From: a virus
Lineage: Duplodnaviria; Caudoviricetes
Length of the DNA stretch: 64,000 bases
Virus record (IMG/VR): IMGVR_UViG_3300032300_000346
Location: 3,595-67,594 of that record
Direction: 5' to 3' (one strand)
In this document: positions 2,586 through 63,061 of the stretch, piece after piece
Layout: each line of letters opens with the position of its first letter
How positions within the stretch are numbered: position 1 is the first letter of the stretch
Translations under genes and position numbers: made by a program
Notes under the pieces: model-generated
What the model was told of the DNA's origin: nothing
The model's database searches: none
What the model saw: the letters and a program-made list of their open reading frames with translations, nothing else

Positions 2586-3504
2586 CCCCAAGATCTATAT
2601 CACGTACTTGTTGCTTAGTGTGATATAAAACAGCACCAATACTACTGCTAGGGTCTCCCGGATTAGGCAACGACCAAATATATTTAAATTTAGGTTCGAC
2701 TACACTCTTGTTGGCCTTACTATTCATGGCACATCCGCCCATATATACTAGACAATCGGAGCCAGTTAGTTCTTTTGCCTTATTCATGATCAGTTCAATT
2801 TGTTCTTCAAACACCAATTGAACAGCAGCAGCAAGATTACATTCGTCTTCTATGCTATCTATGTAGAATTCTTGATCGGTAACACCTTTGTGAAAATTAT
2901 AATTCAATTTCAAAAGTCCTGTAAAATATTTTTTTACTCTGTAATAAAAAATTTTAGGATTACCTTTTTCAGACATTTGTTGTAACTGGTATTCGTCTCG
3001 AATTGGAGTCATTCCAAGGGCGTGAGTGAATGCACTATAAAATAGTCCCAAGCTGTGCGGATAACTACGGCTCCATACTTTTGTCATCTCGCCGTGATGA
3101 CAATTCCATATAGTTGCACACTCGAACTCACCAATAGCGTCAAGCACAACAACCACACAACGATCGAACGGACTAGTGTAGTATCCGGCCGCAGCATGAC
3201 TGCCGTGATGAGGAGTATAAGTAATAGGTGCATAGTGTACTTTTATTTTGTTTAGATATTGTTTAGGCAGAACACTTAGATCAAATGCTCTACGATATTG
3301 CCCCGAACGTAGTTGTCTTGCTTTTTTAAGCCAAGGACGCTCGTACCAAAATATACGATCAGGACCTCCATGATACAGTGCTTCAAAGATTGCAGATTGA
3401 TCTAATTCGTCATTAGAAGAACTTTGATTCGATATTAGTTTACCTTCTTTAATCACTGCAAGACTGCTGCCGTGATTAAGAGCGTTAATCCCCCACTCAA
3501 TCAT
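2557..3504 (-). CDS. NodU/CmcH-family carbamoyltransferase, N-terminal Kae1-like domain only
   Basis: NHGSSLAV, HHGSHAAAG, VLDAIGE, SLGLFY, GGCAMNSKAN, PGDPSSSIGA motifs; ends at 315 aa without the C-terminal GPRALGxRS (YrdC-like) domain. Confidence 0.85.
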   Translation of the reverse strand: MIEWGINALNHGSSLAVIKEGKLISNQSSSNDELDQSAIFEALYHGGPDRIFWYERPWLKKARQLRSGQYRRAFDLSVLPKQYLNKIKVHYAPITYTPHHGSHAAAGYYTSPFDRCVVVVLDAIGEFECATIWNCHHGEMTKVWSRSYPHSLGLFYSAFTHALGMTPIRDEYQLQQMSEKGNPKIFYYRVKKYFTGLLKLNYNFHKGVTDQEFYIDSIEDECNLAAAVQLVFEEQIELIMNKAKELTGSDCLVYMGGCAMNSKANKSVVEPKFKYIWSLPNPGDPSSSIGAVLYHTKQQVRDIDLGVVKHIEIRV

Positions 3505-3617
3505 TTGTAGATAAAAGGATCACGTTTTCGTAGTTCTTCCAAACGTTTTTTCATCCTTTGTTTTTCTTTATATTGATAATAGGGATAGCTTATCCAATAC
3601 CATATTTTTTTAAACAT
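3501..3617 (-). CDS. small basic protein (38 aa; missing from ORF track)
   Basis: MFKKIWYWISYPYYQYKEKQRMKKRLEELRKRDPFIYK; start overlaps primase stop and stop overlaps next ATG (ATGA), i.e. coupled on both sides. Confidence 0.7.
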   Translation of the reverse strand: MFKKIWYWISYPYYQYKEKQRMKKRLEELRKRDPFIYK

Positions 3618-4626
3618 TTTCATTCCTTATTTTTATCTTTTGTTCTTGCATTTTCTTTGCCATTTCTAATCTAATAGCACCGTGTTGTGCGGTCTTGATA
3701 GCATCGACTATGACAAATAATTTACCATATTTTTTTACAGCATCTGCACAATCTTTAATATCTTTATCCCAGTTAGGGAACGCCACTGACCAATCGTAGT
3801 CTATGGCCTGTTTGATCAATAGTACTCCGGCTTGATCTTGATCAGGGATCACAATAACTTCTTTGCCTAATTGATTAATGATGTGTGCCTGTTGTTGTGA
3901 TATTTCATTGGTTAATAATGCAACTCCGTCGATTGCCAACGCATCAAACGGCCCTTCACACACGAACACATATTTGCTCAAAGGATCCTGTGCATCAACA
4001 TTGAACACAAAAAAGGGATGTTGATCTGATAGATACTTAGGCTTACCGTCTCCTACTTTACGAGCAGTATTACCAACTACAACTCCGTCATACTTAAAAG
4101 GAATAATTACACGATCAATAAATCCAGGAGCAGGGCTCCAGCAGAAATTGTCATCCAGAGGATCGTATCCTCTGCCTATTAGATAATCAATAACCTTGCC
4201 AATGTCTTCGGCAATATCTGGCAAGTATGCACTATTGACCCACTCTGCAATGGTCATTGTTGCTTCGGGCAGATCTTTCTTGGTAAATTTAACCTTTTCA
4301 ACAAAGTGTTCAGGTTCGTAGTCTAGGCTTTCAGTTTTGAGTGCTTCAAAGACCAAATGTTTGATCTCATCATCATTAGCGCCTAGCCATCGACATAGTG
4401 TTTTAAACTTTTCAGTTAGTGTTCTTCCTGGTTGCCAATTAGCTGTATATTTGCAGTTAAAACAGTTGTAGACAACTCCTTCACTGAACATTATGCCAGC
4501 ACGTTTTCGAGTATCTCTTGCGTGACCTCTGTGTTGACAACAGGGAGCATTGAAACTGATCCATCCACTGGGGCTGGATTTAATTTTGGGCAATAATAAG
4601 CGGAAACGGTCTAAGACAAGTGTCAT
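3610..4626 (-). CDS. DNA primase (Zn-finger + Toprim; gp61-like)
   Basis: N-terminal CC.H...YNCFNC zinc motif, RVIIPF, PKY, VCEGPFDA and IPDQDQAG Toprim motifs. Confidence 0.88.
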   Translation of the reverse strand: MTLVLDRFRLLLPKIKSSPSGWISFNAPCCQHRGHARDTRKRAGIMFSEGVVYNCFNCKYTANWQPGRTLTEKFKTLCRWLGANDDEIKHLVFEALKTESLDYEPEHFVEKVKFTKKDLPEATMTIAEWVNSAYLPDIAEDIGKVIDYLIGRGYDPLDDNFCWSPAPGFIDRVIIPFKYDGVVVGNTARKVGDGKPKYLSDQHPFFVFNVDAQDPLSKYVFVCEGPFDALAIDGVALLTNEISQQQAHIINQLGKEVIVIPDQDQAGVLLIKQAIDYDWSVAFPNWDKDIKDCADAVKKYGKLFVIVDAIKTAQHGAIRLEMAKKMQEQKIKIRNENV

Positions 4627-4632
4627 AGACTT

Positions 4633-4661
4633 AGTATACTATCTATACAGCACTTTGTCAA
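4633..4661 (-). promoter_or_regulatory. sigma70-type promoter for primase operon
   Basis: TTGACA-N17-TATACT. Confidence 0.8.
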
Positions 4662-5442
4662 CGGTTCCGGAGGTCGGAGTGTGTTTTATTCTAAACCAAT
4701 TGTATTTGCCGACCAAATTGTGATAATCATTAACAGCATTTTCAAAATTCAATGTAGCAACATCAGCCCAAACTTCTGGACTTCCACCGTCACTAAGACT
4801 GCCTTGAATAATTACCGATCCACTGTAGTTTGTAAAGTAAAATTGAAATGTATGCAAGGAGTTTGGAGCAGTGACTTCTGGTTTAGCATCGATAATACTG
4901 CTGATATAATAATCGATAAAATTTTCTCCAAAACTCTTGTGTAGACTAAAAACTTTGATTGAGTTACTGTCAGTAGCAGAACCGTAGATAGAATGTGCTA
5001 CTTCTATGGTACCCAGTGTGCCGTACTGACTGTCAGAATACAACGGAGTTTTTTCAGATACTAGGTATTCGTTTGCATTTATAGTAGTTCTAGTTTCTCT
5101 ATGCAAACTGTATTGATAACTACCTGTTTCAATATCTAGTAGATCAGCAGCGGTAAGGGTAACGTTAATTTTGCCTGTAACTAGATCAGTGACTGTGCAG
5201 TCTTTTTCTAAAATCAATTCTTGAGTGTCTCTGCCCACTAGGGTAAAAACCACTGTAGATCCGGTTATATTCAAGGATTTTTGATCGGCATTTTTGACCT
5301 GCACTTTGATCCGGTTATCCATTCCGCCGTAGACTTTTATGTTTCGTTGATACACTTTTCGATACCTCTCTGTTGTCCAGGCGCCGACATTTGTAAACAC
5401 ATCGATGTTATTTGGGTATAAATAAACTGAAATTTGTTGCAT
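4639..5442 (-). CDS. putative virion/baseplate protein with BppU-like N-terminal domain
   Basis: IKVQVKNADQKSLNITGSTVVF...GKINVTL pattern resembles BppU_N; late-type promoter at 5464-5471. Confidence 0.45.
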   Translation of the reverse strand: MQQISVYLYPNNIDVFTNVGAWTTERYRKVYQRNIKVYGGMDNRIKVQVKNADQKSLNITGSTVVFTLVGRDTQELILEKDCTVTDLVTGKINVTLTAADLLDIETGSYQYSLHRETRTTINANEYLVSEKTPLYSDSQYGTLGTIEVAHSIYGSATDSNSIKVFSLHKSFGENFIDYYISSIIDAKPEVTAPNSLHTFQFYFTNYSGSVIIQGSLSDGGSPEVWADVATLNFENAVNDYHNLVGKYNWFRIKHTPTSGTVDKVLYR

Positions 5443-5472
5443 ACATTAACGGACCTTTAGCAATATTTATCT

Positions 5473-5844
5473 ATGAGAATAACAGAAAACTTACAACAAA
5501 ACTTTCCATTTATATCCGTGCTAAACCACGTAGATCAAGAATATGTTGGTATTATAATTAACCAAGATAATCAGATTACTAGTATGTACGACTATTCGTT
5601 GATAAAATCAGACCTAGAAAAAAGCAGGTTTATAGAACTTGGAGAAGCTTGGTGGTGGGAATCCAACCGTCAAATACCTATCAGTATCTTTCTTGCTAGA
5701 GAAATTTTTACTTATAGATATGCTATACGAAATTTTGCAACCAAAGATATTAAAGTTATACTAGGACCAATCACCAGTCTCAATGATATCATAATCAAAC
5801 GTGTAAAAAGAAAATCTATTACACTAGTAAGAAGAGTGCCCTAA
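5473..5844 (+). CDS. hypothetical protein (123 aa)
   Basis: Fills gap between divergent/convergent neighbours; 4-nt convergent stop overlap at 5841-5844. Confidence 0.65.
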   Translation: MRITENLQQNFPFISVLNHVDQEYVGIIINQDNQITSMYDYSLIKSDLEKSRFIELGEAWWWESNRQIPISIFLAREIFTYRYAIRNFATKDIKVILGPITSLNDIIIKRVKRKSITLVRRVP

Positions 5845-6419
5845 GAGTACCCGTAACTAATTTGTTCGCAGATTAAATTTATTTGAACAACAATAGCAAC
5901 AGCATAGGCTGTAGCATGGCTTTTCTTAAAGTAATAATCGTCAGTCTCTGGTTTCATCCACACTTCCGTCATCACAGTTGTCCAATCTTTTCCTATCAGA
6001 TGCCGCTTGGCCGGCCGTATCATTCCCAACACTGCCGCTAGTTGTTCTACGTTTTTCGGCTGCATTTCTTTGAGTATGGAACCATGCCCGTTGACGTGAA
6101 AAAGCAAACTGGTGAAATCGTCTTGTAGTAGTAAATCCCATAACGGCTCCTGATTCATTAGGTGTACTAAGTGATTTTCATCTTTAATACCTTTGTATAA
6201 TCCAACATTGAGAAAATCTATTTTAAAATACTCTCTTTGTTCAGCAGTATCATAAGGAACTGCACATAGTCCTGTTAGGGCGTTAACTGGTACTTCGTGC
6301 ATATAGATGCCAGTGTTATGCTTGACCAATCGATTGTTTTCAATACGACTGGCTCCTACGTGTTTGAATAGTTTTAATGCAGAATCTCTGTCTGTAAAAT
6401 CTATGTCTATGTCAGGCAT
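5841..6419 (-). CDS. miniature C-family (DnaE-like) polymerase core, 192 aa
   Basis: Starts at MPDIDIDF and has HNTG, FKIDFL, LAAVLGMIRP and FKKSHATAY, colinear with Pol III alpha palm/finger motifs. Confidence 0.8.
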   Translation of the reverse strand: MPDIDIDFTDRDSALKLFKHVGASRIENNRLVKHNTGIYMHEVPVNALTGLCAVPYDTAEQREYFKIDFLNVGLYKGIKDENHLVHLMNQEPLWDLLLQDDFTSLLFHVNGHGSILKEMQPKNVEQLAAVLGMIRPAKRHLIGKDWTTVMTEVWMKPETDDYYFKKSHATAYAVAIVVQINLICEQISYGYS

Positions 6420-6658
6420 TATTGCAATCTCGTGCTTTCAAAAAGTAATAATGGTAGTGTCTCTGCTAAAAACTGTGCATATTCTTCAGCGTCTTCAGCG
6501 TCTTCAAATCCGGAGAATTTTACATAAACGTCGCTAGAGTCTTCGGCCACAACCACTTCGATATCGATGTCGTCTCTGGATATATGTTCTTCGTTGTCTT
6601 TAAGTTCTTCTTCAACAACTTCTGGTTCTAGCTCTTCTCGTCGTTTCTTAAAAATCAT
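6419..6658 (-). CDS. acidic hypothetical protein (79 aa)
   Basis: Coupled ORF (overlaps at both ends). Confidence 0.55.
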   Translation of the reverse strand: MIFKKRREELEPEVVEEELKDNEEHISRDDIDIEVVVAEDSSDVYVKFSGFEDAEDAEEYAQFLAETLPLLLFESTRLQ

Positions 6659-50084: not shown

Positions 50085-52112
50085 TCAACGACCCAATCTC
50101 AGTTTTAGACCACTGGTAATATTGAGATTGGAAAGAATTTTTCTTGACCCTATCCTAAATCTAGCATCGAATGGTCCTTGATAAAGCACTCGAGCATCGC
50201 CGCCTTCGAGACTTTCATAGTCCAGCCAATTGGCTGTATTAGTAGTAGTTGATTCTGTACCAAAATAAAAATCGGCAGCGTCTTGTGTTTCTAAAGATTG
50301 CAGCCATGCTTTGACTTCTACCCAGGTCCAATCTCTATTCCACTCTAACACAGTGGCTATAAGTCCTGTGGCCACAGGGCAGGCAGCACTAGTTCCACTA
50401 AAAGCAGCATCGGTAGCATTTCCAGAATTGTAGCTTAGAGCAGCGTAAGTGTCGGGTCTTGGCCAATTTGTGCCATAGCCTCTATTAGCTGCCAACGTGC
50501 CATCTGCAGGAGCATATACGTCTATGCTGTTTCCCCTATCGCTGTAAGAAACTTTGGCTTCTTTTGAAGTTTTATAATCATCATCCAATGCACCTATATT
50601 GATCACAGGATAAATCACTGTGCCGTTGACATCGGTGTATTTGCCGCCTGCTTGAGGGAATCCTCTTCTATTTGTTGTGCCAAATACTGCAACGCCAAAT
50701 TCAGTAAACGTAGAATCGGCCAGGCTTCCGCCATTAGTAGTGGTAATAAAATTGTTAAAGTCTGGATGACTGCTATTCACTTGTTTTTGATTGCTGTTGC
50801 CGGAAGCTGCAACAAAAATTACTCCAGCAGCAATCAATTCATCTTGTGCTGTAGTCAATGAATTTGTTTTCATTTCACTTTTCCAACGGCCGCTATCGCC
50901 CTGTGTGCCCATATGACTCAGCCAATTTATCCCTACTTCAGTAGTATAGGCAGTGTTACTTGTTGATCTATGAGTGTAATAATAAGTTGATCCGCCGGGA
51001 TCTTTGTTGGCTCGATAGCCCCAGCTATTGCTTGTTATTGTGGGATTTCTAGTATTAAAAAGAGGGTTTACTGGCTTTACTGTATGGAATATTTTCATCA
51101 GATCGAACCCCTCTTCTATGCCTATCCCTAAGCCTCCGTATAGATCTAATACCCATTTATTGGAATTATAAGCCCAGCCTTGTGTCCTACCAAAGGTCAG
51201 AGCAGCACAACATGTGCCGTGATCGCCTTCGTTAGATAATGCAGCATTAGTACCATTGCAGTTTGCTCTAGTATAATTAGAAGTAACACTCACTGTTCCT
51301 GCATTCGCAAACTGTGTGCTGCGTTGGGAACTGGTTGACCACCATGATCTTGCCACTGATTCCACAGGAACCGTGGTGCCGTCCCATCTAGTGATTAATC
51401 TTGACGCGGCATTAGCATTGAACCAATCTGGATCTATGTAATATGGAGCATCTAGAACTAGATCTAATAAATCACAGGTGCCGTTGCCTGGAAGTAAATT
51501 ACCTCCGACATAGCCACTGGGCTTTGGCACAGCTTCAAACGGACTAGAATCGGACAAACTATTACTTTGAAATTCTGGGTGCCCAATCCAGGTGCCGTCA
51601 TCCGCAACTATGACATCTATGTTCTTGCCCGTGCCGTATTGTGGAATGTTGATATTGACCACTGCATTGTCTGCTAGTGCAGCATCTACCCAGGGATCTA
51701 ATTTTTGTATGCATCTATAAAGCTGATATCCGGTTCTGTTGACGTCTGACGTATCAGGAGTGGGGGGCAACGTGTCAGAAACAGAAAATTCTCTGTAATT
51801 TTTCACCGAATCTGTATATCTGTTTACTAAATCTGGTCTTACTGAATGCAGTTCGTCGGGCGGTGGTTTGAATTCAGCGTAGCGTTTATAATCTATGTTA
51901 ATGAATTTTATTCTTGGATCAGTTTTTAACTGTTCTGCTTCTGCGTCAGTGAGAAGATACGTGCCTCGAGTTAAACTGTGCAGTTGATCATCTACGCATT
52001 CAATTCCTCGAGAAGGAACAGATTGACTAACATGCCCCGTCGAAATTAGTTCAGCATTTAGCTCGTCCCATTCTGCTTCAGTATGAGTTGCTAATTGATA
52101 ATACTTTTCCAT
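50085..52112 (-). CDS. subtilase (peptidase S8) with propeptide-like N-terminus
   Basis: Catalytic triad DVIVADDG, HGTCCA, FSGTSAACP; oxyanion AASGN. Confidence 0.9.
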   Translation of the reverse strand: MEKYYQLATHTEAEWDELNAELISTGHVSQSVPSRGIECVDDQLHSLTRGTYLLTDAEAEQLKTDPRIKFINIDYKRYAEFKPPPDELHSVRPDLVNRYTDSVKNYREFSVSDTLPPTPDTSDVNRTGYQLYRCIQKLDPWVDAALADNAVVNINIPQYGTGKNIDVIVADDGTWIGHPEFQSNSLSDSSPFEAVPKPSGYVGGNLLPGNGTCDLLDLVLDAPYYIDPDWFNANAASRLITRWDGTTVPVESVARSWWSTSSQRSTQFANAGTVSVTSNYTRANCNGTNAALSNEGDHGTCCAALTFGRTQGWAYNSNKWVLDLYGGLGIGIEEGFDLMKIFHTVKPVNPLFNTRNPTITSNSWGYRANKDPGGSTYYYTHRSTSNTAYTTEVGINWLSHMGTQGDSGRWKSEMKTNSLTTAQDELIAAGVIFVAASGNSNQKQVNSSHPDFNNFITTTNGGSLADSTFTEFGVAVFGTTNRRGFPQAGGKYTDVNGTVIYPVINIGALDDDYKTSKEAKVSYSDRGNSIDVYAPADGTLAANRGYGTNWPRPDTYAALSYNSGNATDAAFSGTSAACPVATGLIATVLEWNRDWTWVEVKAWLQSLETQDAADFYFGTESTTTNTANWLDYESLEGGDARVLYQGPFDARFRIGSRKILSNLNITSGLKLRLGR

Positions 52113-52115
52113 AGA

Positions 52116-53162
52116 TTAATGCAGATCTACCCAAACACCTGCTGCTCGAACTTGTAGCTTATTGGTAGTTGTGTTATAGATAACATCGCCGTTGGCTGCT
52201 ATCAAAAGATCTCTTTCCCCAGATGTAAAAGACGCCATTTTCAAAGGGCTTGCAGTTATTTCTACACGGGTACCAGCTGTTAATTGTATTTCACTGTCTG
52301 AAAATAATTCAGGAATACCAGATCCCTGACTTGAAAAATTGCCAGTTAGTACAATGTCTTTTACAGTTAATTGATTATTCACTGACAAATTCAATGCAAC
52401 ATCAACACTGTTATCTATCACAAGATTATTTTGCACAGTGACATCAGATTCAAAAATCACCGCGGGCGTAAATATTATAGCGGAAGAATCCGAAGAGTCT
52501 ATAGTGGTAACAGCAAAGGTAATATTGCCTGTAGAACCACCACCAATGATTGTGATGTTGCCCGAGCCATCGGAGGTTGTAGTAATGCCGCCGGCTCCAG
52601 AGAATCGAACTATACTGCCTGATGTAACTGGGTTTAATGTAGAGTCGTCTGCTTCTACATTTAATACAAATGTTGCGGCCGATACAGCTGAATTAACAAA
52701 TGCTGTAGTGGCTAATCCTGCTGTGGCAGGCAGTGCTGCTACTGTGGAATTTACATAAGATATTGTGGCTAAATTTGTAATATCAGGATACGGAGATACT
52801 GGTTGGATCCATTGACTGCTGGATCCGTCGTTAAAGTAAACATATAGTATACCAGTATTAGTGTCTAACCACAAATTTCCGCTAGAAGGAGATACAGGTA
52901 CACTGCTACCTACTGAAACTGTGGTATTTCCACCACCACTTACTCCTGCTAAATTAGCTTTGGAAAGAAAGTCTGAGTTAGTAACGTTAGTTAAATCTGC
53001 TTTTGCTAAACTTACGCCGCCGACTGTCGATCCGTTGTAAATTCTAAGAGTGTTAACTGTTTGATCGTAAAAAACTTCGCCCCTCGATCCTGAATTTCTA
53101 TTTAAAAATCCAGAATCTCTAGGAATTATTCTTACTGCATCGAATACGGGTATTTTGGCCAT
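52116..53162 (-). CDS. tail-fibre-like virion protein
   Basis: Repeated GEVFYDQT/GNLWLDTNT/GDVIYNTT motifs, Ser/Thr/Gly-rich; late-type motif at 53168-53175. Confidence 0.65.
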   Translation of the reverse strand: MAKIPVFDAVRIIPRDSGFLNRNSGSRGEVFYDQTVNTLRIYNGSTVGGVSLAKADLTNVTNSDFLSKANLAGVSGGGNTTVSVGSSVPVSPSSGNLWLDTNTGILYVYFNDGSSSQWIQPVSPYPDITNLATISYVNSTVAALPATAGLATTAFVNSAVSAATFVLNVEADDSTLNPVTSGSIVRFSGAGGITTTSDGSGNITIIGGGSTGNITFAVTTIDSSDSSAIIFTPAVIFESDVTVQNNLVIDNSVDVALNLSVNNQLTVKDIVLTGNFSSQGSGIPELFSDSEIQLTAGTRVEITASPLKMASFTSGERDLLIAANGDVIYNTTTNKLQVRAAGVWVDLH

Positions 53163-53174
53163 ACTATTATTTAT

Positions 53175-54044
53175 TTAAATGTAACGCATGTTTGATAGAT
53201 ACTTTATGTATTTTTCAATGCCTGCATTAATTTGAATAAAATTTTCAACATTTACTCCTGAACTGATTAGTAAATTAGTATCAGCAAGGGTGTTAATTTG
53301 ATACTGATTTTTAAGATCAGCTGGCATATCTATGAATTTTTTTGTTCCTGACCCTGTATGATCTATTATTGTATCCGCAATAGTTTCAAAATCTACCCTA
53401 TTACCAGAGCCTAAATCATAAATTCCGGGTTGATAATTGTTATACATAAAATGGTATATGGTCTTTGCCACGTCCTCTACCCATATAAAATCTCTAAAAT
53501 AATTCTTACTGTTTTCAAATATTTTTATTTCTCCAGTCTTGTTGAGTTGATCAAACCAGTGTAGAATTGAAGAAGCCATTCTGCCCTTGTGATATTCATT
53601 GGGTCCGTATACATTAAACAGTCGAAGAATAACTCCGTCTATTTCATTCTCGCTGAGTAGTTTGCTAAACGCATATTGATTCATCGGGCCTTGGCCGTTA
53701 CCGTATACTGCTGCACTTGAAGTAAAAATAAAAGGTATGTCACGTTCTTTACAAAATATATTCCACTTTCTTGTTGATTTAATATTTGAGGCATAAATTG
53801 AACTCCAATTTTTTTCTAAAGTGTTCGAATTAGCACCAATATGTATTACTCCGGTGATATTTTCATTAATAAAGTCAACATCATCTATCGATAACAGCCT
53901 TTTATACTGTTTACCGATTAAATTTTTATATTGATTTTCATAAGGCAAATCATCAACTATAAGAATATCAGTTATTTGTTGAGAGTTTAAATATCCCAAC
54001 ACCACGCTGCCAATAAAGCCACCCGCACCTGTTAATACTATCAT
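53175..54044 (-). CDS. hldD: ADP-L-glycero-D-manno-heptose 6-epimerase
   Basis: TGAGGFIGS, TSSAAVYG, YAFSK, LFNVYGPNEYHKGRMAS, RDFIWV.D; start at ATG 54044 (ATGA overlap). Confidence 0.88.
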   Translation of the reverse strand: MIVLTGAGGFIGSVVLGYLNSQQITDILIVDDLPYENQYKNLIGKQYKRLLSIDDVDFINENITGVIHIGANSNTLEKNWSSIYASNIKSTRKWNIFCKERDIPFIFTSSAAVYGNGQGPMNQYAFSKLLSENEIDGVILRLFNVYGPNEYHKGRMASSILHWFDQLNKTGEIKIFENSKNYFRDFIWVEDVAKTIYHFMYNNYQPGIYDLGSGNRVDFETIADTIIDHTGSGTKKFIDMPADLKNQYQINTLADTNLLISSGVNVENFIQINAGIEKYIKYLSNMRYI

Positions 54045-54799
54045 AAAATTTCTTCTAATGTCGGAGCATAGCATCCAACGTGTTGAACTGTAACAGCGGC
54101 AGCTTGGTTGGCAAAATCCATTGCTCTTGTTATATTTTTAGTGTGTAGGTAATTGTAGGCTAGTGCAGCAAGAAAAGTATCTCCTGCACCTGTAACGTCT
54201 ACTACCTCTACTTTTGGTGCCTTGGAACTATACTGCTGATGTATAGCATCTGCACCACTAGGACCACGTGTAACAATAAGTCCACTGCATTCACTTTTAA
54301 TTTTGCTATACTCTAGTTCATTAATTTTAACCCATGCTCCTTGAAAACGATCTAAGTCTGTTTTCTTTGTATCTACAAATACAGGAATTTTGGTTTTAAT
54401 TAATTGTTCTATTAGCTCATAGCTAACGGTTCCTTTATTGTAATCACTAATTACAATAGCATCGTAGTTGTCTAAATTGTAGTTAATTGTTGCCGATGTA
54501 GAGATTACATCATTGTCAATTCTTACAATCTGTTGTTTACTTCTAATATCAATTAATCTAGTCTTTGTACTGTTTTCTCCGTATACAGAATAAACTTTGC
54601 ACCCTAGGGTTACTAGATTATTACAGACATTTCCGGCCATGCCGGGTCTGCTTTCTTCGTGACTAAATTTAAATACAGGAACTGGAGCTTCGGGACTAAT
54701 ACGATCAACAGTACCATATTGATATATGTCTGTACAATTATCCCCTATGAGTAATATCTTGTATTGCTTTGGTTGTTGAGTATGGTTCAACTCTGTCAT
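54041..54799 (-). CDS. hldE: heptose-7-phosphate kinase (HldE/RfaE domain I, PfkB family)
   Basis: LIGD..D.Y.YG.VDRISPEAPVPV, GMAGNV, KTR, SDYNKG, DVTGAGDTFLA. Confidence 0.9.
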   Translation of the reverse strand: MTELNHTQQPKQYKILLIGDNCTDIYQYGTVDRISPEAPVPVFKFSHEESRPGMAGNVCNNLVTLGCKVYSVYGENSTKTRLIDIRSKQQIVRIDNDVISTSATINYNLDNYDAIVISDYNKGTVSYELIEQLIKTKIPVFVDTKKTDLDRFQGAWVKINELEYSKIKSECSGLIVTRGPSGADAIHQQYSSKAPKVEVVDVTGAGDTFLAALAYNYLHTKNITRAMDFANQAAAVTVQHVGCYAPTLEEIL

Positions 54800-55142
54800 A
54801 AAATTTTATCTCTTTACAATATTCTGCACCTATTATAGGTCTGTCCCGATAGTCACTGCCTTTGACCATTACATCAGGTTTAAAATCTTTGATTAGATCT
54901 ACGAGTTCTTGATCAGTGTTAAAAATTTCTACTCGATCTACAAATTTCAATGCCGATAATAAATTTAAACGATCGTATTGTGAATTTATCGGACGATTAT
55001 TATCTTTCAACTGTTTTACTCTGATATCACTATCTATAGCTACAAGAACAAACGAATTAGGATAACACCTTGCATATTCTAAAAGTTTTATATGTCCTAA
55101 GTGAACGATATCAAACGTTCCGTTTACAAAAATCTTAGTCAT
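54738..55142 (-). CDS. hldE: heptose-1-phosphate adenylyltransferase (HldE/RfaE domain II)
   Basis: NGTFDIVHLGH, AIDSD..V..LK...RPIN, VKGSDY, YSTT. Confidence 0.88.
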   Translation of the reverse strand: MTKIFVNGTFDIVHLGHIKLLEYARCYPNSFVLVAIDSDIRVKQLKDNNRPINSQYDRLNLLSALKFVDRVEIFNTDQELVDLIKDFKPDVMVKGSDYRDRPIIGAEYCKEIKFYDRVEPYSTTKAIQDITHRG

Positions 55143-55620
55143 TTAATAATATATTTCGAATTTCTTCAAAGTTGTTTTTGTATAGTAAACCAATACCACC
55201 AACACTATTCCATTCGTGAATATTGCTGGTACGATCATCGATTAAAATATCGCCGGGCATACAGTGTGTGTGTTTGTCTTTGCTATACGGACCAAACATA
55301 ACAGGAATATCTGAGTAGTGTTCTTGTATCCATAATACTTTATCATAAAAAGCCCACGAAACGTCATTAGCTTTAGGAACCGCAGTCAAAAACAACAGTT
55401 GATATTTGTTCTTTTTGCAATATGTTTTACAAAACTCTACAATTATATCGGCTTCTTTTGTTTTTTTTAAATTTCTATAAAGTCTAGGATTTTCTTTTAA
55501 TACATTCCAATCCTCGTCATCCCATCGATCGTGAACAATCTGTTGTTTATTTAAAATTTCGCTAGCATAACCGTTAAAGTCTGCTACAACACCGTCCATG
55601 TCTAAGTACAAAGTTGTCAT
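55135..55620 (-). CDS. HAD phosphatase, 5'(3')-deoxyribonucleotidase-like
   Basis: YLDMDGV.ADF, FLTA.P, K..W, ILIDDR..N..EW...GG.G. Confidence 0.82.
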   Translation of the reverse strand: MTTLYLDMDGVVADFNGYASEILNKQQIVHDRWDDEDWNVLKENPRLYRNLKKTKEADIIVEFCKTYCKKNKYQLLFLTAVPKANDVSWAFYDKVLWIQEHYSDIPVMFGPYSKDKHTHCMPGDILIDDRTSNIHEWNSVGGIGLLYKNNFEEIRNILLND

Positions 55621-55979
55621 TGTTGACTGTCTCCTGGAAATATTCTAAAATTATCTTCAACTGAATCTGGCGTACTGACTTCAAAAATACTAGAATTTTC
55701 TTCTAAAGATTCTACCTGATGGGGTAACATAGGCGGGTTATGCCATATGTCGCCTTGCTTTAGTATTTGTTCGGTTACATTTGTTGTGTTAGTATCTAAT
55801 ATTCTTAATTTAAAACTACCAGAATTAATAAACCAAGTTTCGTCTTTTTCTTTGTGAAGGTGCATAGAAAACTTTGATCCAACTTTTTCAAATACCATTA
55901 TTTTTCCGCAATATTTGTCAGTAGTTGCCCAGATTAATTCGTGGCCCCAACCTTTCTTAACAAATCCCGTTAGTCTCAT
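55617..55979 (-). CDS. cupin-fold sugar isomerase-like protein
   Basis: KGWGHELIW, SMHLHKEKDETW, PPMLPHQ, EVSTPD..ED..R. Confidence 0.82.
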   Translation of the reverse strand: MRLTGFVKKGWGHELIWATTDKYCGKIMVFEKVGSKFSMHLHKEKDETWFINSGSFKLRILDTNTTNVTEQILKQGDIWHNPPMLPHQVESLEENSSIFEVSTPDSVEDNFRIFPGDSQQ

Positions 55980-56636: not shown

Positions 56637-57896
56637 TTAATCTATTATAGAAATCCAGTCAACTATCAAATGTATTCTATCGTTGTCACTGTTATTTTTA
56701 ACACTATGAATCTTGTTAGTATTATTAATTTCCCATATTTCTCCAACTTTCATATGCATTATTTCATCCCCAACTCTAAACTCACATTGATCATTTGTAA
56801 TAAGCGGAATATGCATTCTATGACAAGCATCTAAACTAATGCCAGAATCTATATGTTCTGGTATAACACTATTAGCTGTTAAGTTTACCAAAATTGCCCT
56901 GGTTATATATCCAAAACCTAATTTTTCTTCAAAGATTGCAGTCAATACTTTTATCTCATCGGCAAAACGTTCAAAACCGGGATGATAATTTACATTTTCT
57001 GATTCAAAATCTTTACTAAAAATTAAAGGAATAGTCAGTGTCTTTGCATGAACATCAAAAGTTTCTTGTCTAAATGTAAATTCTTTCCAGACATTGTTAT
57101 CAATACTTGTTAATTTATTTTTTAAATTTTCTATATTTAAATTAGCTATAAATTTAAAATTAAAATTGTCTAATTCAATTAGTGTATAGCCACACTCAGA
57201 TAACACTGCTATTTTTTTAGAAAATACAGAATTTATAATTTTTAATTGTTTGTCCGATAATTTTTTAATTTGCAACTCATTCATATTTAAAATCTTTGAA
57301 GAGTATCCTTTGGTGTTAAAAATCCTGTTGTTATCTATTCTGGTAATGTTTAAATATTCTTCTATCTGTTTAACAATTTCGGCAGTATTATTTGTTAGAT
57401 CTTCGTATGTAAAAACTAAATCATTTAAATATGTTTCACTGTGTTCGAGTTGTATTTCTAAACATCTAATTGCATGAGTAGCTGCATCTATTAGCGAGGC
57501 GGCCGGATTTGCACGCAAGATGCTTTCGACCATAGCGTAAGGATTCCTAATCATTATTATGAACTTTGTATCTTCGAACTCTTCAGCTAACATATCAGCT
57601 CGTAATATATCTGGAGGACTTTTTTGTAAAAATACAGTTGCATTCGGATTTGAATTATTCCAATGAAAATTCCACTGGCGTTTAATTATTTCCCACTCAT
57701 AATTTTTTTTGTTTCTAAATATATCTTCTTTTTTAGTAAAAAAATGAGCAACGCCATACTGGTAGGCAAGTGGTCCAACAAAATTCTCGCAAAACTGTCC
57801 TTCACCTGGTAAAATTGCAACATCGGGAGAAGTTGCAATTAGATCATGTAATATAGAACTGCCGCTGTTATTGGGAACTAATAGAAATAAATGCAT
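56637..57896 (-). CDS. sulfotransferase domain fused to Asp/Asn beta-hydroxylase-like 2OG domain
   Basis: PNNSGSSIL, QKSP, IRNPY (PAPS-binding-like); C-terminal I.EH.D..RMHIPL.TN..GEIWEINN..HSV.N..R.HL..D. Confidence 0.78.
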   Translation of the reverse strand: MHLFLLVPNNSGSSILHDLIATSPDVAILPGEGQFCENFVGPLAYQYGVAHFFTKKEDIFRNKKNYEWEIIKRQWNFHWNNSNPNATVFLQKSPPDILRADMLAEEFEDTKFIIMIRNPYAMVESILRANPAASLIDAATHAIRCLEIQLEHSETYLNDLVFTYEDLTNNTAEIVKQIEEYLNITRIDNNRIFNTKGYSSKILNMNELQIKKLSDKQLKIINSVFSKKIAVLSECGYTLIELDNFNFKFIANLNIENLKNKLTSIDNNVWKEFTFRQETFDVHAKTLTIPLIFSKDFESENVNYHPGFERFADEIKVLTAIFEEKLGFGYITRAILVNLTANSVIPEHIDSGISLDACHRMHIPLITNDQCEFRVGDEIMHMKVGEIWEINNTNKIHSVKNNSDNDRIHLIVDWISIID

Positions 57897-59233: not shown

Positions 59234-59844
59234 CGTAGCGGTCTTCCTTTTATCCAGGTAACTAGCGCCCATCTTTCGCCGTGTGTAACTGGCAACACTT
59301 CATGAAACGCCAACGACGGAAACAACACAACTTGACCTTGCTCTTTGGGTAGTGTAATATCAGTTCTAAGATATAATATTAAATCGCCACCTTCAAACTC
59401 AGACGGGTCCGACAGTAATGCGGTATAGGATATTTTTCGAGTAGTGAAATTACCTCCAAAGTCACTATGTTTGTTATAATGGTCTTGGACTTTAGAGAGC
59501 GGATCGAATTTATATTGTAATAATTCTAGTGTCTCAATAAGATTAACATCTAGATTCCAAAAGTCTTTGTTAGCTGTTAACAGAGTATTACAGACTTTGG
59601 TGTATATCCAACCAAATTCTTCGTTATTAGGTATAAGCCATCGATTAACTTTCCTAAAAAATGTATCTATGGTTGCACCTTCCGAATTAATCTCTGCTGG
59701 AACAAGCTCTAAACTATTGCTTGCTTTTTTAATTCTTTCACATTCAGACGGTGTCCACATAAACTCTCTAGCAGGTTGCGGAGTATCCTTGTTAATTAAT
59801 AAATAATCTATCCATTGTTGATAAGCATTATCAATATAGAGCAT
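59230..59844 (-). CDS. 2OG-Fe(II) oxygenase (PKHD/prolyl hydroxylase-like)
   Basis: HSD...RKIS...L....FEGG.L...FPS..HEV.PVT.G.RWALV.W. Confidence 0.88.
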   Translation of the reverse strand: MLYIDNAYQQWIDYLLINKDTPQPAREFMWTPSECERIKKASNSLELVPAEINSEGATIDTFFRKVNRWLIPNNEEFGWIYTKVCNTLLTANKDFWNLDVNLIETLELLQYKFDPLSKVQDHYNKHSDFGGNFTTRKISYTALLSDPSEFEGGDLILYLRTDITLPKEQGQVVLFPSLAFHEVLPVTHGERWALVTWIKGRPLR

Positions 59845-61541
59845 TATTTTTTTTCCAGCAATAAAGAAACTTCAGGTAGGTACAAGTATTTTAAATCACT
59901 TTTTCTTAAAGTGCTTAATGCATCATCGATAGTTTCTACTAGTGGATCTCCGCCTAGGTTAAAACTTGTATTGAACAAAATTGGCACATTGCTTAATTTA
60001 TTAAATTCTTGAATTAACTTGTAGTAATGAGGATTCTGTTTTTCTGTAACAGTTTGAACTCTGCAAGTATCATCCACGTGAGTAATAGACGGCACAACAC
60101 CTAACTTTTCTTTTCTTACATCTACTGCATACATCATAAACGGACTTTCTTCCATTCCTGCCATATCAAACCATTCGTGTACATTTTCTTTTAGTACAGT
60201 ACCTGCAAATGGTCTAAACCACTCACGACGTTTAACTTGATTAACAATGTCTTTGCCGTTAGGCACAGTAGGATCAAACAAAATACTTCGATTTCCCAAT
60301 GCACGTGGGCCGGCCTCACTTCCGCCTTGGAACATACAAACAATATTTTTATTTCTTATGAGACCGGCAATGTCTGCGTACGATACTGTAGTTGCTTTAA
60401 AATCATCTAATTCTATTAATTGATTAACATCAATAGTATATTTTGGCCCGTGATATATATTAGTCTGCGGATGTTTTACGTCATTTTGAAATTCTTTAAA
60501 ATGTACAAGTCTCGCAGCACCGATCGATGTACCGGCATCGTGACTAATAGGCTCCACATACAAGTTAACATCTGCCGGGAGATTTTTCTTATAGAAATAA
60601 TTTGCCACACAATTTAAACCGTATCCGCCTGCAATAACTACATTTTTATTGCCCGATAATTCAATTCCTTTTTTAATTAAATTAAGTACTGCGTGTTGTG
60701 TATCTAATTGCAATTTATAAGCAAGATTTTTTTGATTGATCAACGTAGTATCAGCAAGAAACTCGTAATTATTTGTATTAATATCTGCCGCGGAGGGAAT
60801 AGTAGGAGTAATTAAATTGCGATTGCTTGCTCCATTGGATAAGAAAAAATCTGGAATTCTATTATCCGCTTCGCCATAAGGAGCAAGACCCATTGTTTTT
60901 CCAGCTTCAATGGCTGAAAATCCACAATATTGTGTCACAGCTTCATAACATTTTACGATTCCTGGTTGATCGGCGATCCAGCACTCGGCAGTCTCAACGT
61001 TTTCTATCTTGATATGTTGTCTTGCTGTTCCGTAATTTGTTTGATAATTTTTGTAAAGTGGGGTAAAGTCAGTGGGATAGTTACAGTTAATAATTGATTC
61101 AGCTTCCCAGAATGTAATTGGCATGCCTGTATTATTAGTACCATCATACCTCGATCCAGCGCCGTCGACAATAATAGCAACAGCACTGTCAAACCCACTA
61201 TTGTAAAATGCGCAGGCAGCATGCAGTTGATGATGAATATGTCCCATCAAATATACTGGAGTATTGTGATCAATAAGATGGTGTTTTCTCAAAAGTTCTA
61301 CATAGACATTATTTGAACACCAGTCTGATTGAGGAGCACTATTATCTGTGTGCGCTATAGCAACAGCATCTATTCGATCTGTAAATTTTTTAGTTTCTTC
61401 TAATGCTCTAAACGGAGTTCCGTCATGTTTATGTCGTGTTAATCTTTCTTCTTCTATATAAAATAGTTGTTCGCCGTTTTTAAGTAGGCAAACACTGCTG
61501 TTATGTCCTCTAGACATTCCTAAAATATAAGTATCTTTCAT
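59844..61541 (-). CDS. full-length NodU/CmcH carbamoyltransferase
   Basis: EEERLTR.KH, HHQLHAA, VDGAG, GKTMGLAPYG, GGYGLNC..N, D.G..IGAA, EAGPRALGNRS, RE.FRPFA, TSFNL. Confidence 0.92.
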   Translation of the reverse strand: MKDTYILGMSRGHNSSVCLLKNGEQLFYIEEERLTRHKHDGTPFRALEETKKFTDRIDAVAIAHTDNSAPQSDWCSNNVYVELLRKHHLIDHNTPVYLMGHIHHQLHAACAFYNSGFDSAVAIIVDGAGSRYDGTNNTGMPITFWEAESIINCNYPTDFTPLYKNYQTNYGTARQHIKIENVETAECWIADQPGIVKCYEAVTQYCGFSAIEAGKTMGLAPYGEADNRIPDFFLSNGASNRNLITPTIPSAADINTNNYEFLADTTLINQKNLAYKLQLDTQHAVLNLIKKGIELSGNKNVVIAGGYGLNCVANYFYKKNLPADVNLYVEPISHDAGTSIGAARLVHFKEFQNDVKHPQTNIYHGPKYTIDVNQLIELDDFKATTVSYADIAGLIRNKNIVCMFQGGSEAGPRALGNRSILFDPTVPNGKDIVNQVKRREWFRPFAGTVLKENVHEWFDMAGMEESPFMMYAVDVRKEKLGVVPSITHVDDTCRVQTVTEKQNPHYYKLIQEFNKLSNVPILFNTSFNLGGDPLVETIDDALSTLRKSDLKYLYLPEVSLLLEKK

Positions 61542-62077: not shown

Positions 62078-63061
62078 TTAACAGCATGATGATTGAACTG
62101 GCTTCTCAGCAATTTGAGTAGGCGGTAGTAGTATATCCTTGGCTGTTTTTTTCTCAATATCTATTTGTATTTGTTGATACATACTGCTGATTTCGTCTTC
62201 ACTAAAATCCATTATGGTATCGTTGGCTCTATCAGCTAGATCAATATCTGGCACAGAATCTGTTATACGTATTGGACTGTACATTTTTTCCTGATCCTTT
62301 TCCAAGATTTGGAAATGATTTTGATATGACACATTTTCTACAAATGTACTACCCATAATAACTGTGCCTGGTTTGTTAAAGCTTCTTGCCATATGCTGTC
62401 CGCTACTATCGCAACCTATAAAATAATTACAAGTTTCAATCAGCGCCATATATGTTCTGATATTTAAATTAGCTGGTTTAAACGACCACTTGTCTTCAGC
62501 TACTGGGAATTCACTCATTACTATTACGCAATAGTATTCACTCAATCGTTTGGTTAATTCTAAATATAATTCTTTACTAAAACTTCTGCTAGATTTATCA
62601 TATAAAAATTCATTTTCGTAAATTACACTTCTTCCAAACGGTTGTACTATTACTACTTTATTTTTTCCTGAGGCTAATTTTGCTTGATTGATAATATTGG
62701 CAGCATACACTTCTTCTTCTTTATTGAGATATAAATTAGGAATGGTTAGATCTGAATGATCTGTAGTATTATTAATGATTTCATCAAATGCTTCTATAAG
62801 GTGAGATTTTTGATTGAAATAACTATTGAGCCTGTATGGTTCGGGGGTAATAATTTCGCAGTGTTTAAGTTGATCTTCGAATAAATTCTTTGTCCAAATT
62901 GGATAAGTTTTTCTATAGAGATATGGATGTCCTTGAAAGGCCTCTACTGTGCCTTCTACTACAATAATAAAATCATCAGTAGTAGCATAAAGTTTTTCTA
63001 ATGCAGGAATTGAACATATTTGTCTTCCTAATCCTCCATTAATAAAAATCGCTTTTTTCAT
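62078..63061 (-). CDS. GT9 (heptosyltransferase-like) glycosyltransferase
   Basis: GGLGRQI..IPAL; FIGCDSSGQHMARSFNKP..V..GST matches GT9 FIGxDSGxxHxA.A...P....G.T. Confidence 0.75.
   Translation of the reverse strand: MKKAIFINGGLGRQICSIPALEKLYATTDDFIIVVEGTVEAFQGHPYLYRKTYPIWTKNLFEDQLKHCEIITPEPYRLNSYFNQKSHLIEAFDEIINNTTDHSDLTIPNLYLNKEEEVYAANIINQAKLASGKNKVVIVQPFGRSVIYENEFLYDKSSRSFSKELYLELTKRLSEYYCVIVMSEFPVAEDKWSFKPANLNIRTYMALIETCNYFIGCDSSGQHMARSFNKPGTVIMGSTFVENVSYQNHFQILEKDQEKMYSPIRITDSVPDIDLADRANDTIMDFSEDEISSMYQQIQIDIEKKTAKDILLPPTQIAEKPVQSSCC

Follow-up and report, generated by a model that had tools for sequence, protein, structure and literature searches.

A candidate cupin isomerase in place of GmhA in an ADP-heptose gene module of a T4-like ocean phage

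In this study we analysed a five-gene operon, apparently devoted to the synthesis of ADP-heptose, located at 53175-55979 of a stretch of viral DNA of 64,000 nucleotides. This whole stretch, referred to as the window, comprises bases 3595-67594 of the 67.6-kb IMG/VR record IMGVR_UViG_3300032300_000346, the completeness of which was estimated by CheckV at ~19%. T4-type tail sheath and tube proteins, gp15, the large terminase, UvsX and gp32 were recognized in the window by family-model scans, and contigs of its relatives reach 320-365 kb; the window is a fragment of a large T4-like ocean phage of ~350 kb. A nucleotide search (blastn) with the operon against the isolate phage collection gave no match.

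The operon is composed of five head-to-tail open reading frames (ORFs) on the minus strand, in the order cupin, NT5C-like HAD, adenylyltransferase, kinase and epimerase. The cupin gene (55617-55979) encodes a protein of 120 aa, a candidate sedoheptulose-7-phosphate isomerase and thus functional analogue of GmhA, which passes the Cupin_2 model (PF07883) with 29.4 bits at a cut-off of 27.2 bits. It is followed by the gene of a 161-aa HAD phosphatase (55135-55620) that passes NT5C (PF06941; 37.0 bits vs a cut-off of 24.8) and is a candidate D-glycero-beta-D-manno-heptose-1,7-bisphosphate 7-phosphatase, a functional analogue of GmhB. The three remaining genes encode a heptose-1-phosphate adenylyltransferase of the HldE domain II/HldC type (54738-55142, 134 aa), a short form of the HldE domain I/HldA-type heptose-7-phosphate kinase (54041-54799, 252 aa) and an HldD-type ADP-glyceromanno-heptose 6-epimerase, the longest ORF of which spans 53175-54074. 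A start of the epimerase at 54044 (53175-54044) is more likely than one at 54074. As read from the sequence, the cupin and HAD genes share an ATGA (55617-55620), while the HAD and adenylyltransferase genes overlap by the 8 nt ATGACTAA (55135-55142) and those of the adenylyltransferase and the kinase by 62 nt (54738-54799). The kinase stop forms a further ATGA with the epimerase gene (54041-54044), provided that the latter starts at its second ATG (54044, MIVLTGAGGFIG). The five overlapping genes, their order and their positions had been described in the original prediction, and both ORFs and family models bear them out, together with the two ATGA overlaps and the 8-nt overlap, the ATGA at 54041-54044 requiring the epimerase start at 54044.

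For the kinase, adenylyltransferase and epimerase alike, a heptose-specific NCBIfam model was by far the best match. The adenylyltransferase scored 110 bits with TIGR02199 (rfaE_dom_II), the next specific family being glycerol-3-phosphate cytidylyltransferase with 47 bits; it also matches CTP_transf_like (55.5 bits), and its translation holds the HxGH motif (VHLGH). The kinase reached 165 bits with TIGR02198 (rfaE_dom_I), followed by ribokinase with 56 bits, and 76.8 bits with PfkB; its GAGD motif is invariant in the kinase alignment, and the short 252-aa form is common to all phage relatives. The epimerase, a short-chain dehydrogenase/reductase (SDR) with GAGGFIG and YxxxK motifs in its translation, gave 224 bits with TIGR02197 (heptose_epim) and only 44 bits with the next family, GalE. 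The equivalog cut-offs are 181.5 bits for the adenylyltransferase, 345 for the kinase and 274.6 for the epimerase, and the kinase is classed as HldE-type by its best match, not as an equivalog. Taken as a whole, it is highly probable that the module makes ADP-heptose.

The cupin matched no SIS/GmhA family model in the Pfam and NCBIfam scans and can only be a possible analogue of GmhA, not a member of its family. Its relatives amount to at least 597 in IMG/VR and to 3804 clusters in the protein collection, and the label given to the family by JGI (Joint Genome Institute) is only 'mannose-6-phosphate isomerase-like'. In an alignment of 76 relatives the metal-site residues H40, H42, E47 and H87 are kept in 80-96%, and other conserved residues are E14, K26, K45, E100, D109 and R112. 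AF2 modelled the protein as an all-beta cupin barrel with a mean confidence (pLDDT) of 96.3. In structure it comes closest to the cupin domain of CapF, a nucleotide-sugar C3-epimerase (Z 15.6; root-mean-square deviation 1.9 for 111 residues), which leads the next entry by 1.3 Z. Behind it several cupins are tied at about Z 14, among them KdgF, a 110-aa Thermococcus phosphomannose isomerase (Z 14.1) and quercetinase, and further matches are lyxose isomerase (Z 13.5) and the cupin phosphoglucose isomerase (Z 12.7). The sequence search against PDB chains returned generic metal cupins only, e.g. oxalate decarboxylase. Among the NCBIfam cupin models WbuC (TIGR04366) comes next to oxalate decarboxylase and was not passed (22.9 bits vs a cut-off of 42), and neither the RmlC-like 3,5-epimerase family PF00908 nor the type II phosphomannose isomerase domain PF01050 was matched at E<=0.01. 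The modelled fold would suit an aldose-ketose isomerase that depends on a metal, without proving one, and an epimerase that tailors nucleotide sugars stays alive as a rival.

The JGI family name, the small cupin phosphomannose isomerases among the fold neighbours and a distant cupin relative (P0181) that does pass PF01050 (24.8 vs a cut-off of 23.6 bits) would also fit a module making another ADP-sugar, such as ADP-mannose from fructose-6-phosphate, in which the cupin would be a phosphomannose isomerase. We consider this hardly credible, as the kinase and adenylyltransferase match heptose-specific models best, most clusters carry a C6 epimerase of HldD type, an enzyme that depends on the heptose side chain, a GT9-fold transferase is encoded nearby and the window cupin itself does not match PF01050.

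The linkage of the cupin to heptose genes is tight throughout the phage relatives. Homologues of the adenylyltransferase, kinase and epimerase stand beside it in 80/80 of the best cupin loci, and when 80 loci were chosen by the kinase alone, 73 had a cupin within 6 kb of it. Clusters without the epimerase (L092, L104) keep the cupin. Across the whole 67.6-kb record of the window, GmhA (TIGR00441), SIS_2 (PF13580) and GmhB (TIGR00213) found no match at E<=1, which agrees with the absence of GmhA and GmhB from the window noted in the original prediction; coming from a 19% fragment, this says little by itself about the virus. More telling are 49 cupin-bearing whole phage records, which include one of 364,554 bp rated 100% complete by CheckV (G006) and others 79%, 67% and 51% complete: no TIGR00441 match among them exceeded 12.4 bits, and PF13580 had none. 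Two 12-bit matches to TIGR00441 (G033, G036) lie inside a 2554-aa frame and were rejected as noise. With five cupin-less kinase records added, SIS/GmhA was found in 0/54 related phage records, one of them rated complete. In a tblastn search of ~330 loci with two authentic GmhA proteins only the positive controls, Cr30 and LR756504, were matched; a Polynucleobacter GmhA query found no relative in viral contigs, a weak negative since that search used exact peptide patterns. In the T4-like Caulobacter phage Cr30 (L337, record 2793-6532) an SIS GmhA is encoded together with an epimerase, a glycosyltransferase and a 327-aa 'D,D-heptose 7-phosphate kinase', and a cupin is lacking. The heptose pathway of this phage seems to be based on GmhA and contrasts naturally with the cupin clusters.

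As the window record is only 19% complete, a canonical gmhA, perhaps with gmhB, might lie in the remaining 81% of the phage genome, with the cupin and HAD being accessory. This is quite improbable, given that no SIS gene occurs in the 54 related records, the complete and the 79%, 67% and 51% complete ones included, and that gmhA adjoins the kinase in cells and in phage Cr30 instead of lying far off.

Phage-type clusters were also noticed on three contigs (153-357 kb) that had been assigned by binning to metagenome-assembled genomes (MAGs) of Neomarinimicrobiota or Comchoanobacterales (L175, L176, L178). They hold a kinase, an adenylyltransferase, an epimerase, a cupin (62-69% identity) and a GmhB-like gene, and are probably jumbo-phage contigs mis-binned into the MAGs.

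Fusions of the cupin, seen in a library of representatives at 50% identity, join it to other enzymes of the module. We found NT5C-HAD::cupin (P0137), four cases of mini-HAD::cupin (P0147, P0168, P0185, P0239) with a small phosphatase described below, and both adenylyltransferase::cupin (P0205) and cupin::adenylyltransferase (P0268). A kinase and a cupin share one 441-aa frame in a genome (G492) of the candidate phyla radiation (CPR) of bacteria (L345:5997-7229; contig C1 ~270481-271746). In this genome an adenylyltransferase and an HldD-like epimerase lie downstream on the same strand, and no gmhA match was obtained.

In Patescibacteria MAGs relatives of the cupin with 44-46% identity adjoin the heptose kinase, with or without the adenylyltransferase. 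The distance between cupin and kinase is at most 6.5 kb in 9 genomes of this group, and a search for gmhA at E<=1e-5 was negative in all of them. In a sample of 401 genomes evenly drawn from the phylum an HldE-type kinase is present in 33, and 28 of these have GmhA, directly beside the kinase in the cases listed. Two of the five without it have a cupin adjoining or fused to the kinase, and the kinase matches of the other three lie near contig ends. Altogether GmhA occurs in 0/11 genomes with a kinase-adjacent cupin vs 28/31 other kinase-bearing CPR genomes (Fisher p = 8.5e-8, with related genomes that are not independent and two genome sets gathered differently); for the random sample alone p = 0.019.

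These data bear directly on the tailoring rival, according to which the cupin would be a metal-dependent nucleotide-sugar epimerase or isomerase working with the HldD-type SDR, in the manner of CapF or of the Campylobacter C3/C5 cupins, while host GmhA performs the first step. It is favoured by the CapF domain as top structural neighbour and by the weak WbuC match, the adenylyltransferase fusions agree with it equally well, and the Campylobacter C3/C5 epimerases are the only cupin-heptose link that we found in the literature (PMC7949155). Nevertheless, we regard this explanation as unlikely because the cupin tracks the kinase and not the SDR, is fused to enzymes that act earlier and is mutually exclusive with GmhA. 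It is kept in epimerase-less clusters and in CPR operons that comprise nothing but cupin, kinase and adenylyltransferase genes; the kinase and phosphatases to which it is fused act before any nucleotide sugar exists; and exclusion by GmhA in kinase-bearing CPR genomes is not expected of a tailoring enzyme. Moreover, the cupin has no RmlC-type match, Pfam and NCBIfam scans revealed neither a 4,6-dehydratase nor a C4-reductase in the operon, and the hosts of the cyanophages that carry the same cupin cluster lack heptose in their lipopolysaccharide (LPS; PMC4390846).

We conclude that the cupin is most likely an isomerase because of its linkage to heptose genes, the absence of SIS/GmhA from the 54 records, the fusions and the mutual exclusion with GmhA in CPR bacteria; as far as comparative genomics goes, it is a likely sedoheptulose-7-phosphate isomerase of a new fold. 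Several observations speak against this reading and should be set beside it. The phage is only 19% sequenced, and none of the kinase, adenylyltransferase and epimerase reaches its NCBIfam equivalog cut-off. The fold search for the cupin, Foldseek included, is non-discriminating, with CapF as best neighbour and WbuC as nearest NCBIfam model after oxalate decarboxylase. Seven of the 80 kinase-selected loci have no cupin by hidden Markov model search, some of them being truncated, and no GmhA was found in the five of their records that were searched. In the flanks of three such loci that were scanned no obvious alternative isomerase appeared; these flanks hold a cell-wall hydrolase, a D-Ala-D-Ala carboxypeptidase, an SDR and a GT2. 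Heptose genes are not found next to several CPR cupins that belong to this profile family (~80-113 bits), therefore the family must be broader than the heptose role, and three CPR genomes with GmhA and kinase also hold a weaker cupin match elsewhere. The full-text literature search found no paper proposing a cupin sedoheptulose-7-phosphate isomerase.

The phosphatase slot of the clusters is more variable. The window HAD has all catalytic motifs invariant (D7xD9, T79, K116, D128-D129; motif I DMDGVxADF). It matched no NCBIfam model at all, GmhB (TIGR00213) included, and its sole hit among PDB sequences was a marginal one to a mitochondrial 5'-nucleotidase (4mum_A, 207 aa, E 0.069). Three phosphatase types alternate in the clusters, GmhB-like, NT5C-like and a mini-HAD of 106-114 aa, and never do two of them occur together (tblastn). 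A GmhB-like HAD stands beside the cupin in 23 of the 49 cupin-bearing records, with TIGR00213 scores of 78-99 bits that are below the cut-off; in a 24th record the single match is weak (32.8 bits) and lies ~80 kb away from the cluster. In the complete relative G006 the cluster consists of four genes (L013), those of the cupin, adenylyltransferase, kinase and epimerase, with no GmhB-like or NT5C-like gene genome-wide. Since about 47 of the 80 kinase-selected clusters have none of the three types and the complete G006 lacks both the GmhB-like and the NT5C-like gene, a dedicated phosphatase in the heptose cluster is optional. Mutants of E. coli in gmhB have been reported to have a leaky phenotype, which fits an optional phosphatase.

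Two clusters without a HAD phosphatase have a Nudix hydrolase gene directly upstream of a fused hldE (L062:5576-6019, L071:5486-5926); it might play a role in sugar-nucleotide turnover.

For the NT5C-like HAD the main rival is an ordinary phage 5'(3')-deoxyribonucleotidase, placed in the sugar island by chance, with a host or housekeeping phosphatase performing the step. The NT5C cut-off is passed and phage homologues are annotated as deoxyribonucleotidases; homologues of 55-60% identity are found among clamp-loader, PhoH, gp46/47-like and PD-(D/E)XK genes, in replication and repair modules, as would suit a deoxynucleoside monophosphate nucleotidase. In addition, four larger relatives' records (17-39% complete) have one copy each and no second HAD, heptose-linked HADs are not monophyletic, and most heptose clusters, as shown above, do without a phosphatase of their own. 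On the other hand, the HAD gene is translationally coupled on both sides, NT5C-like genes occur within heptose clusters in at least five gene orders and never together with GmhB-like or mini-HAD genes, and one is fused to a cupin (P0137). Heptose linkage is clustered on the HAD tree, with 8 changes vs a shuffled mean of 19.5 (0/500 shuffles as low). The residues W33/E56/Y102 are present in 19/23 heptose-linked NT5C-like HADs vs 1/31 unlinked ones, 20/31 of which have Y/Y/F at these positions; two of these three residues, situated between HAD motifs I and II, would thus belong to the cap region. A plain nucleotidase is possible but doubtful, and recruitment of a phage nucleotidase lineage as heptose-bisphosphate phosphatase, in the role of GmhB, seems to us the better supported assignment, held with moderate confidence.

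The original prediction regarded the cupin and the HAD as replacements of GmhA and GmhB in a complete and self-sufficient viral pathway. Comparative support for the first replacement is strong and for the second moderate, the NT5C-like HAD alternating with GmhB-like and mini-HAD genes but some 47 of the 80 clusters having no phosphatase; self-sufficiency cannot be established for this phage from 19% of its genome.

Considering the sequence evidence together, the five genes are probably one translationally coupled module leading from sedoheptulose-7-phosphate to ADP-L-glycero-beta-D-manno-heptose. In the first step the cupin, with its His-His-Glu-His metal centre, would likely isomerise the ketose sedoheptulose-7-phosphate to the aldose D-glycero-D-manno-heptose-7-phosphate, through an enediol as in cupin phosphomannose, phosphoglucose and lyxose isomerases. 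The short HldE-type kinase would then, with high confidence from homology, phosphorylate C1. Removal of the 7-phosphate may be assigned, with more caution, to the NT5C-like HAD, and in clusters without a phosphatase presumably to housekeeping enzymes. The HldC-type adenylyltransferase is very likely to yield ADP-D,D-heptose, again by homology, and the HldD-type epimerase is expected, with only slightly less certainty, to invert C6.

A probable consumer of the product is encoded in the same island, outside the operon and 6 kb upstream of it. This is a putative GT9-fold heptosyltransferase-like protein of 327 aa (62078-63061, minus strand), which has no Pfam match at the default threshold (PF01075, 13.7 bits vs a cut-off of 22) and whose profile matched no PDB sequence. 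In Foldseek its AF2 model (pLDDT 89.7) retrieved GT9 structures at all of the listed ranks 1-26, with WaaF (1psw, E 6.5e-11) first, then the protein heptosyltransferase TibC, WaaC and 3tov. The transferase could heptosylate a phage-made or cell-surface acceptor; it is reasonable to infer that either a phage structure or the surface of the infected cell would receive the heptose.

Directly downstream of the operon lies a gene of a fibre-like protein with Ser/Thr/Gly-rich repeats (52116-53162, minus strand, 348 aa), a possible acceptor or structural context, which matched no family in the Pfam and NCBIfam scans. On its other side the operon is flanked by sulfotransferase, 2-oxoglutarate (2OG)-oxygenase and carbamoyltransferase genes, the carbamoyltransferase (59844-61541, minus strand; Carbam_trans_C 198.8 bits) being a syntenic companion of the heptose genes. 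A 419-aa fusion of an N-terminal sulfotransferase and a C-terminal Asp/Asn beta-hydroxylase-type 2OG oxygenase (56637-57896, minus strand) sits between the heptose operon and more sulfotransferase, oxygenase and carbamoyltransferase genes. Downstream of the operon and on the same strand, a 675-aa protein with a subtilase (Peptidase_S8) domain is encoded at 50085-52112; this and the fibre-like protein are 93-100% identical in the nearest relatives (L001-L004).

The cyanophages P-SSM2 and S-CAM3 have the carbamoyltransferase directly upstream of their heptose genes, GT9-like homologues adjoining both, and tail-fibre genes also flanking the cluster. Heptose genes have been mentioned as auxiliary metabolic genes of cyanophages and pelagimyophages (PMC7378029, PMC7029224). 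Cyanobacterial LPS is heptose-free, therefore the hosts of cyanophages are unlikely to supply or need heptose. Among 151 Cyanobacteriota genomes 39 have a gmhA match at 1e-10 and 10 a match over the cut-off, a tally not resolved to marine picocyanobacterial hosts. The protein deposited as 'phosphoheptose isomerase' in P-SSM2 (PSSM2_311, L174:6655-6999) and S-CAM3 (gp150, L173:5688-6008) is the 106-114-aa HAD without an SIS domain, of HAD-IIIA type, which matches TIGR01689 (EcbF/BcbF) with 35-37 bits. The mini-HAD of other cyanophages was deposited under the same name (PMC7378029), and the cupins beside it as 'putative nucleotidyltransferase' or 'cysteine dioxygenase'. These names are probably annotation errors propagated through cyanophage genomes.

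GmhA is considered to catalyse the entry reaction of every nucleotide-heptose pathway. It serves as a marker for genome-based prediction of heptose and is a target for antibiotic adjuvants. The broadest interpretation, towards which we lean only slightly, is that a metal cupin of 110-130 residues constitutes a second, unrelated sedoheptulose-7-phosphate isomerase, replacing GmhA in part of the CPR and in aquatic T4-like phages by the thousand, among them cultured cyanophages in which it is misannotated. It would make the ADP-heptose supply of these phages self-contained and, by means of a divergent GT9, let those that infect heptose-free hosts attach heptose to their own fibres or to the cell surface, the phosphatase step having been filled independently by three HAD lineages. 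If this is true, too few phages and CPR bacteria, and possibly other organisms, are credited with heptose synthesis, and reference cyanophage annotations need correction, both for the mini-phosphatase named 'phosphoheptose isomerase' and for the cupin named 'cysteine dioxygenase'. Three HAD phosphatases alternating at one pathway step would be a clear case of repeated non-orthologous gene displacement. A complete viral supply of ADP-heptose, encoded beside fibre genes, a carbamoyltransferase and a GT9-fold transferase, would suggest that phages direct heptosylation in hosts which make no use of heptose themselves.

Compared with the bacterial pathway of GmhA, HldE (or HldA and HldC), GmhB and HldD, the phage module has the same five proposed activities, its kinase, adenylyltransferase and epimerase being homologous to HldE domains I and II and to HldD, and its phosphatase, as GmhB, belongs to the HAD superfamily. 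It differs in the 120-aa cupin found in place of the SIS-fold GmhA, in a phosphatase of NT5C type where GmhB is of HAD-IIIA type, in the split HldE with a short 252-aa kinase and three homologues under the equivalog cut-offs, and in its location within a tail-fibre island instead of an LPS core locus.

With known cupin sugar isomerases (the Thermococcus enzyme 7zvy/7zvm, PF01050, the archaeal phosphoglucose isomerase 1j3p and the D-lyxose isomerase 7nzo) the window cupin has in common a single small barrel, matched in fold at Z 12.7-14.1, and a His/His/Glu/His metal site, and its proposed reaction is the seven-carbon analogue of that of phosphomannose isomerase; identity is only 11-23%, and none of their family models was passed. 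The CapF cupin domain, WbuC and the Campylobacter jejuni C3/C5 epimerases (PMC7949155) are likewise cupins of sugar-nucleotide pathways found beside SDRs, but they act on 4-keto nucleotide sugars, for which the required dehydratase is absent from the phage operon, and the distribution of the phage cupin tracks the kinase and not the SDR. The NT5C deoxyribonucleotidases (PF06941; human mdN/cdN and phage genes) resemble the window HAD in the Pfam cut-off passed and in the HAD motifs, including DMDGVxADF. The latter is shorter (161 aa vs 207 aa in the mitochondrial chain 4mum_A), is coupled within a sugar operon and belongs with the heptose-linked W33/E56/Y102 proteins, in contrast to the Y/Y/F of replication modules.

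Finally, the heptose gene sets of cyanomyoviruses (P-SSM2 PSSM2_309-313; S-CAM3 gp148-151; S-SSM7, S-CAM1, S-SM2 and P-TIM68) differ from the window operon in gene order, in an epimerase placed on the other strand and in a phosphatase that is the 106-114-aa EcbF/BcbF-type mini-HAD. They share with it the adenylyltransferase, kinase, small phosphatase, cupin (~40% identical) and epimerase, and they, too, adjoin carbamoyltransferase, GT9-like and tail-fibre genes.

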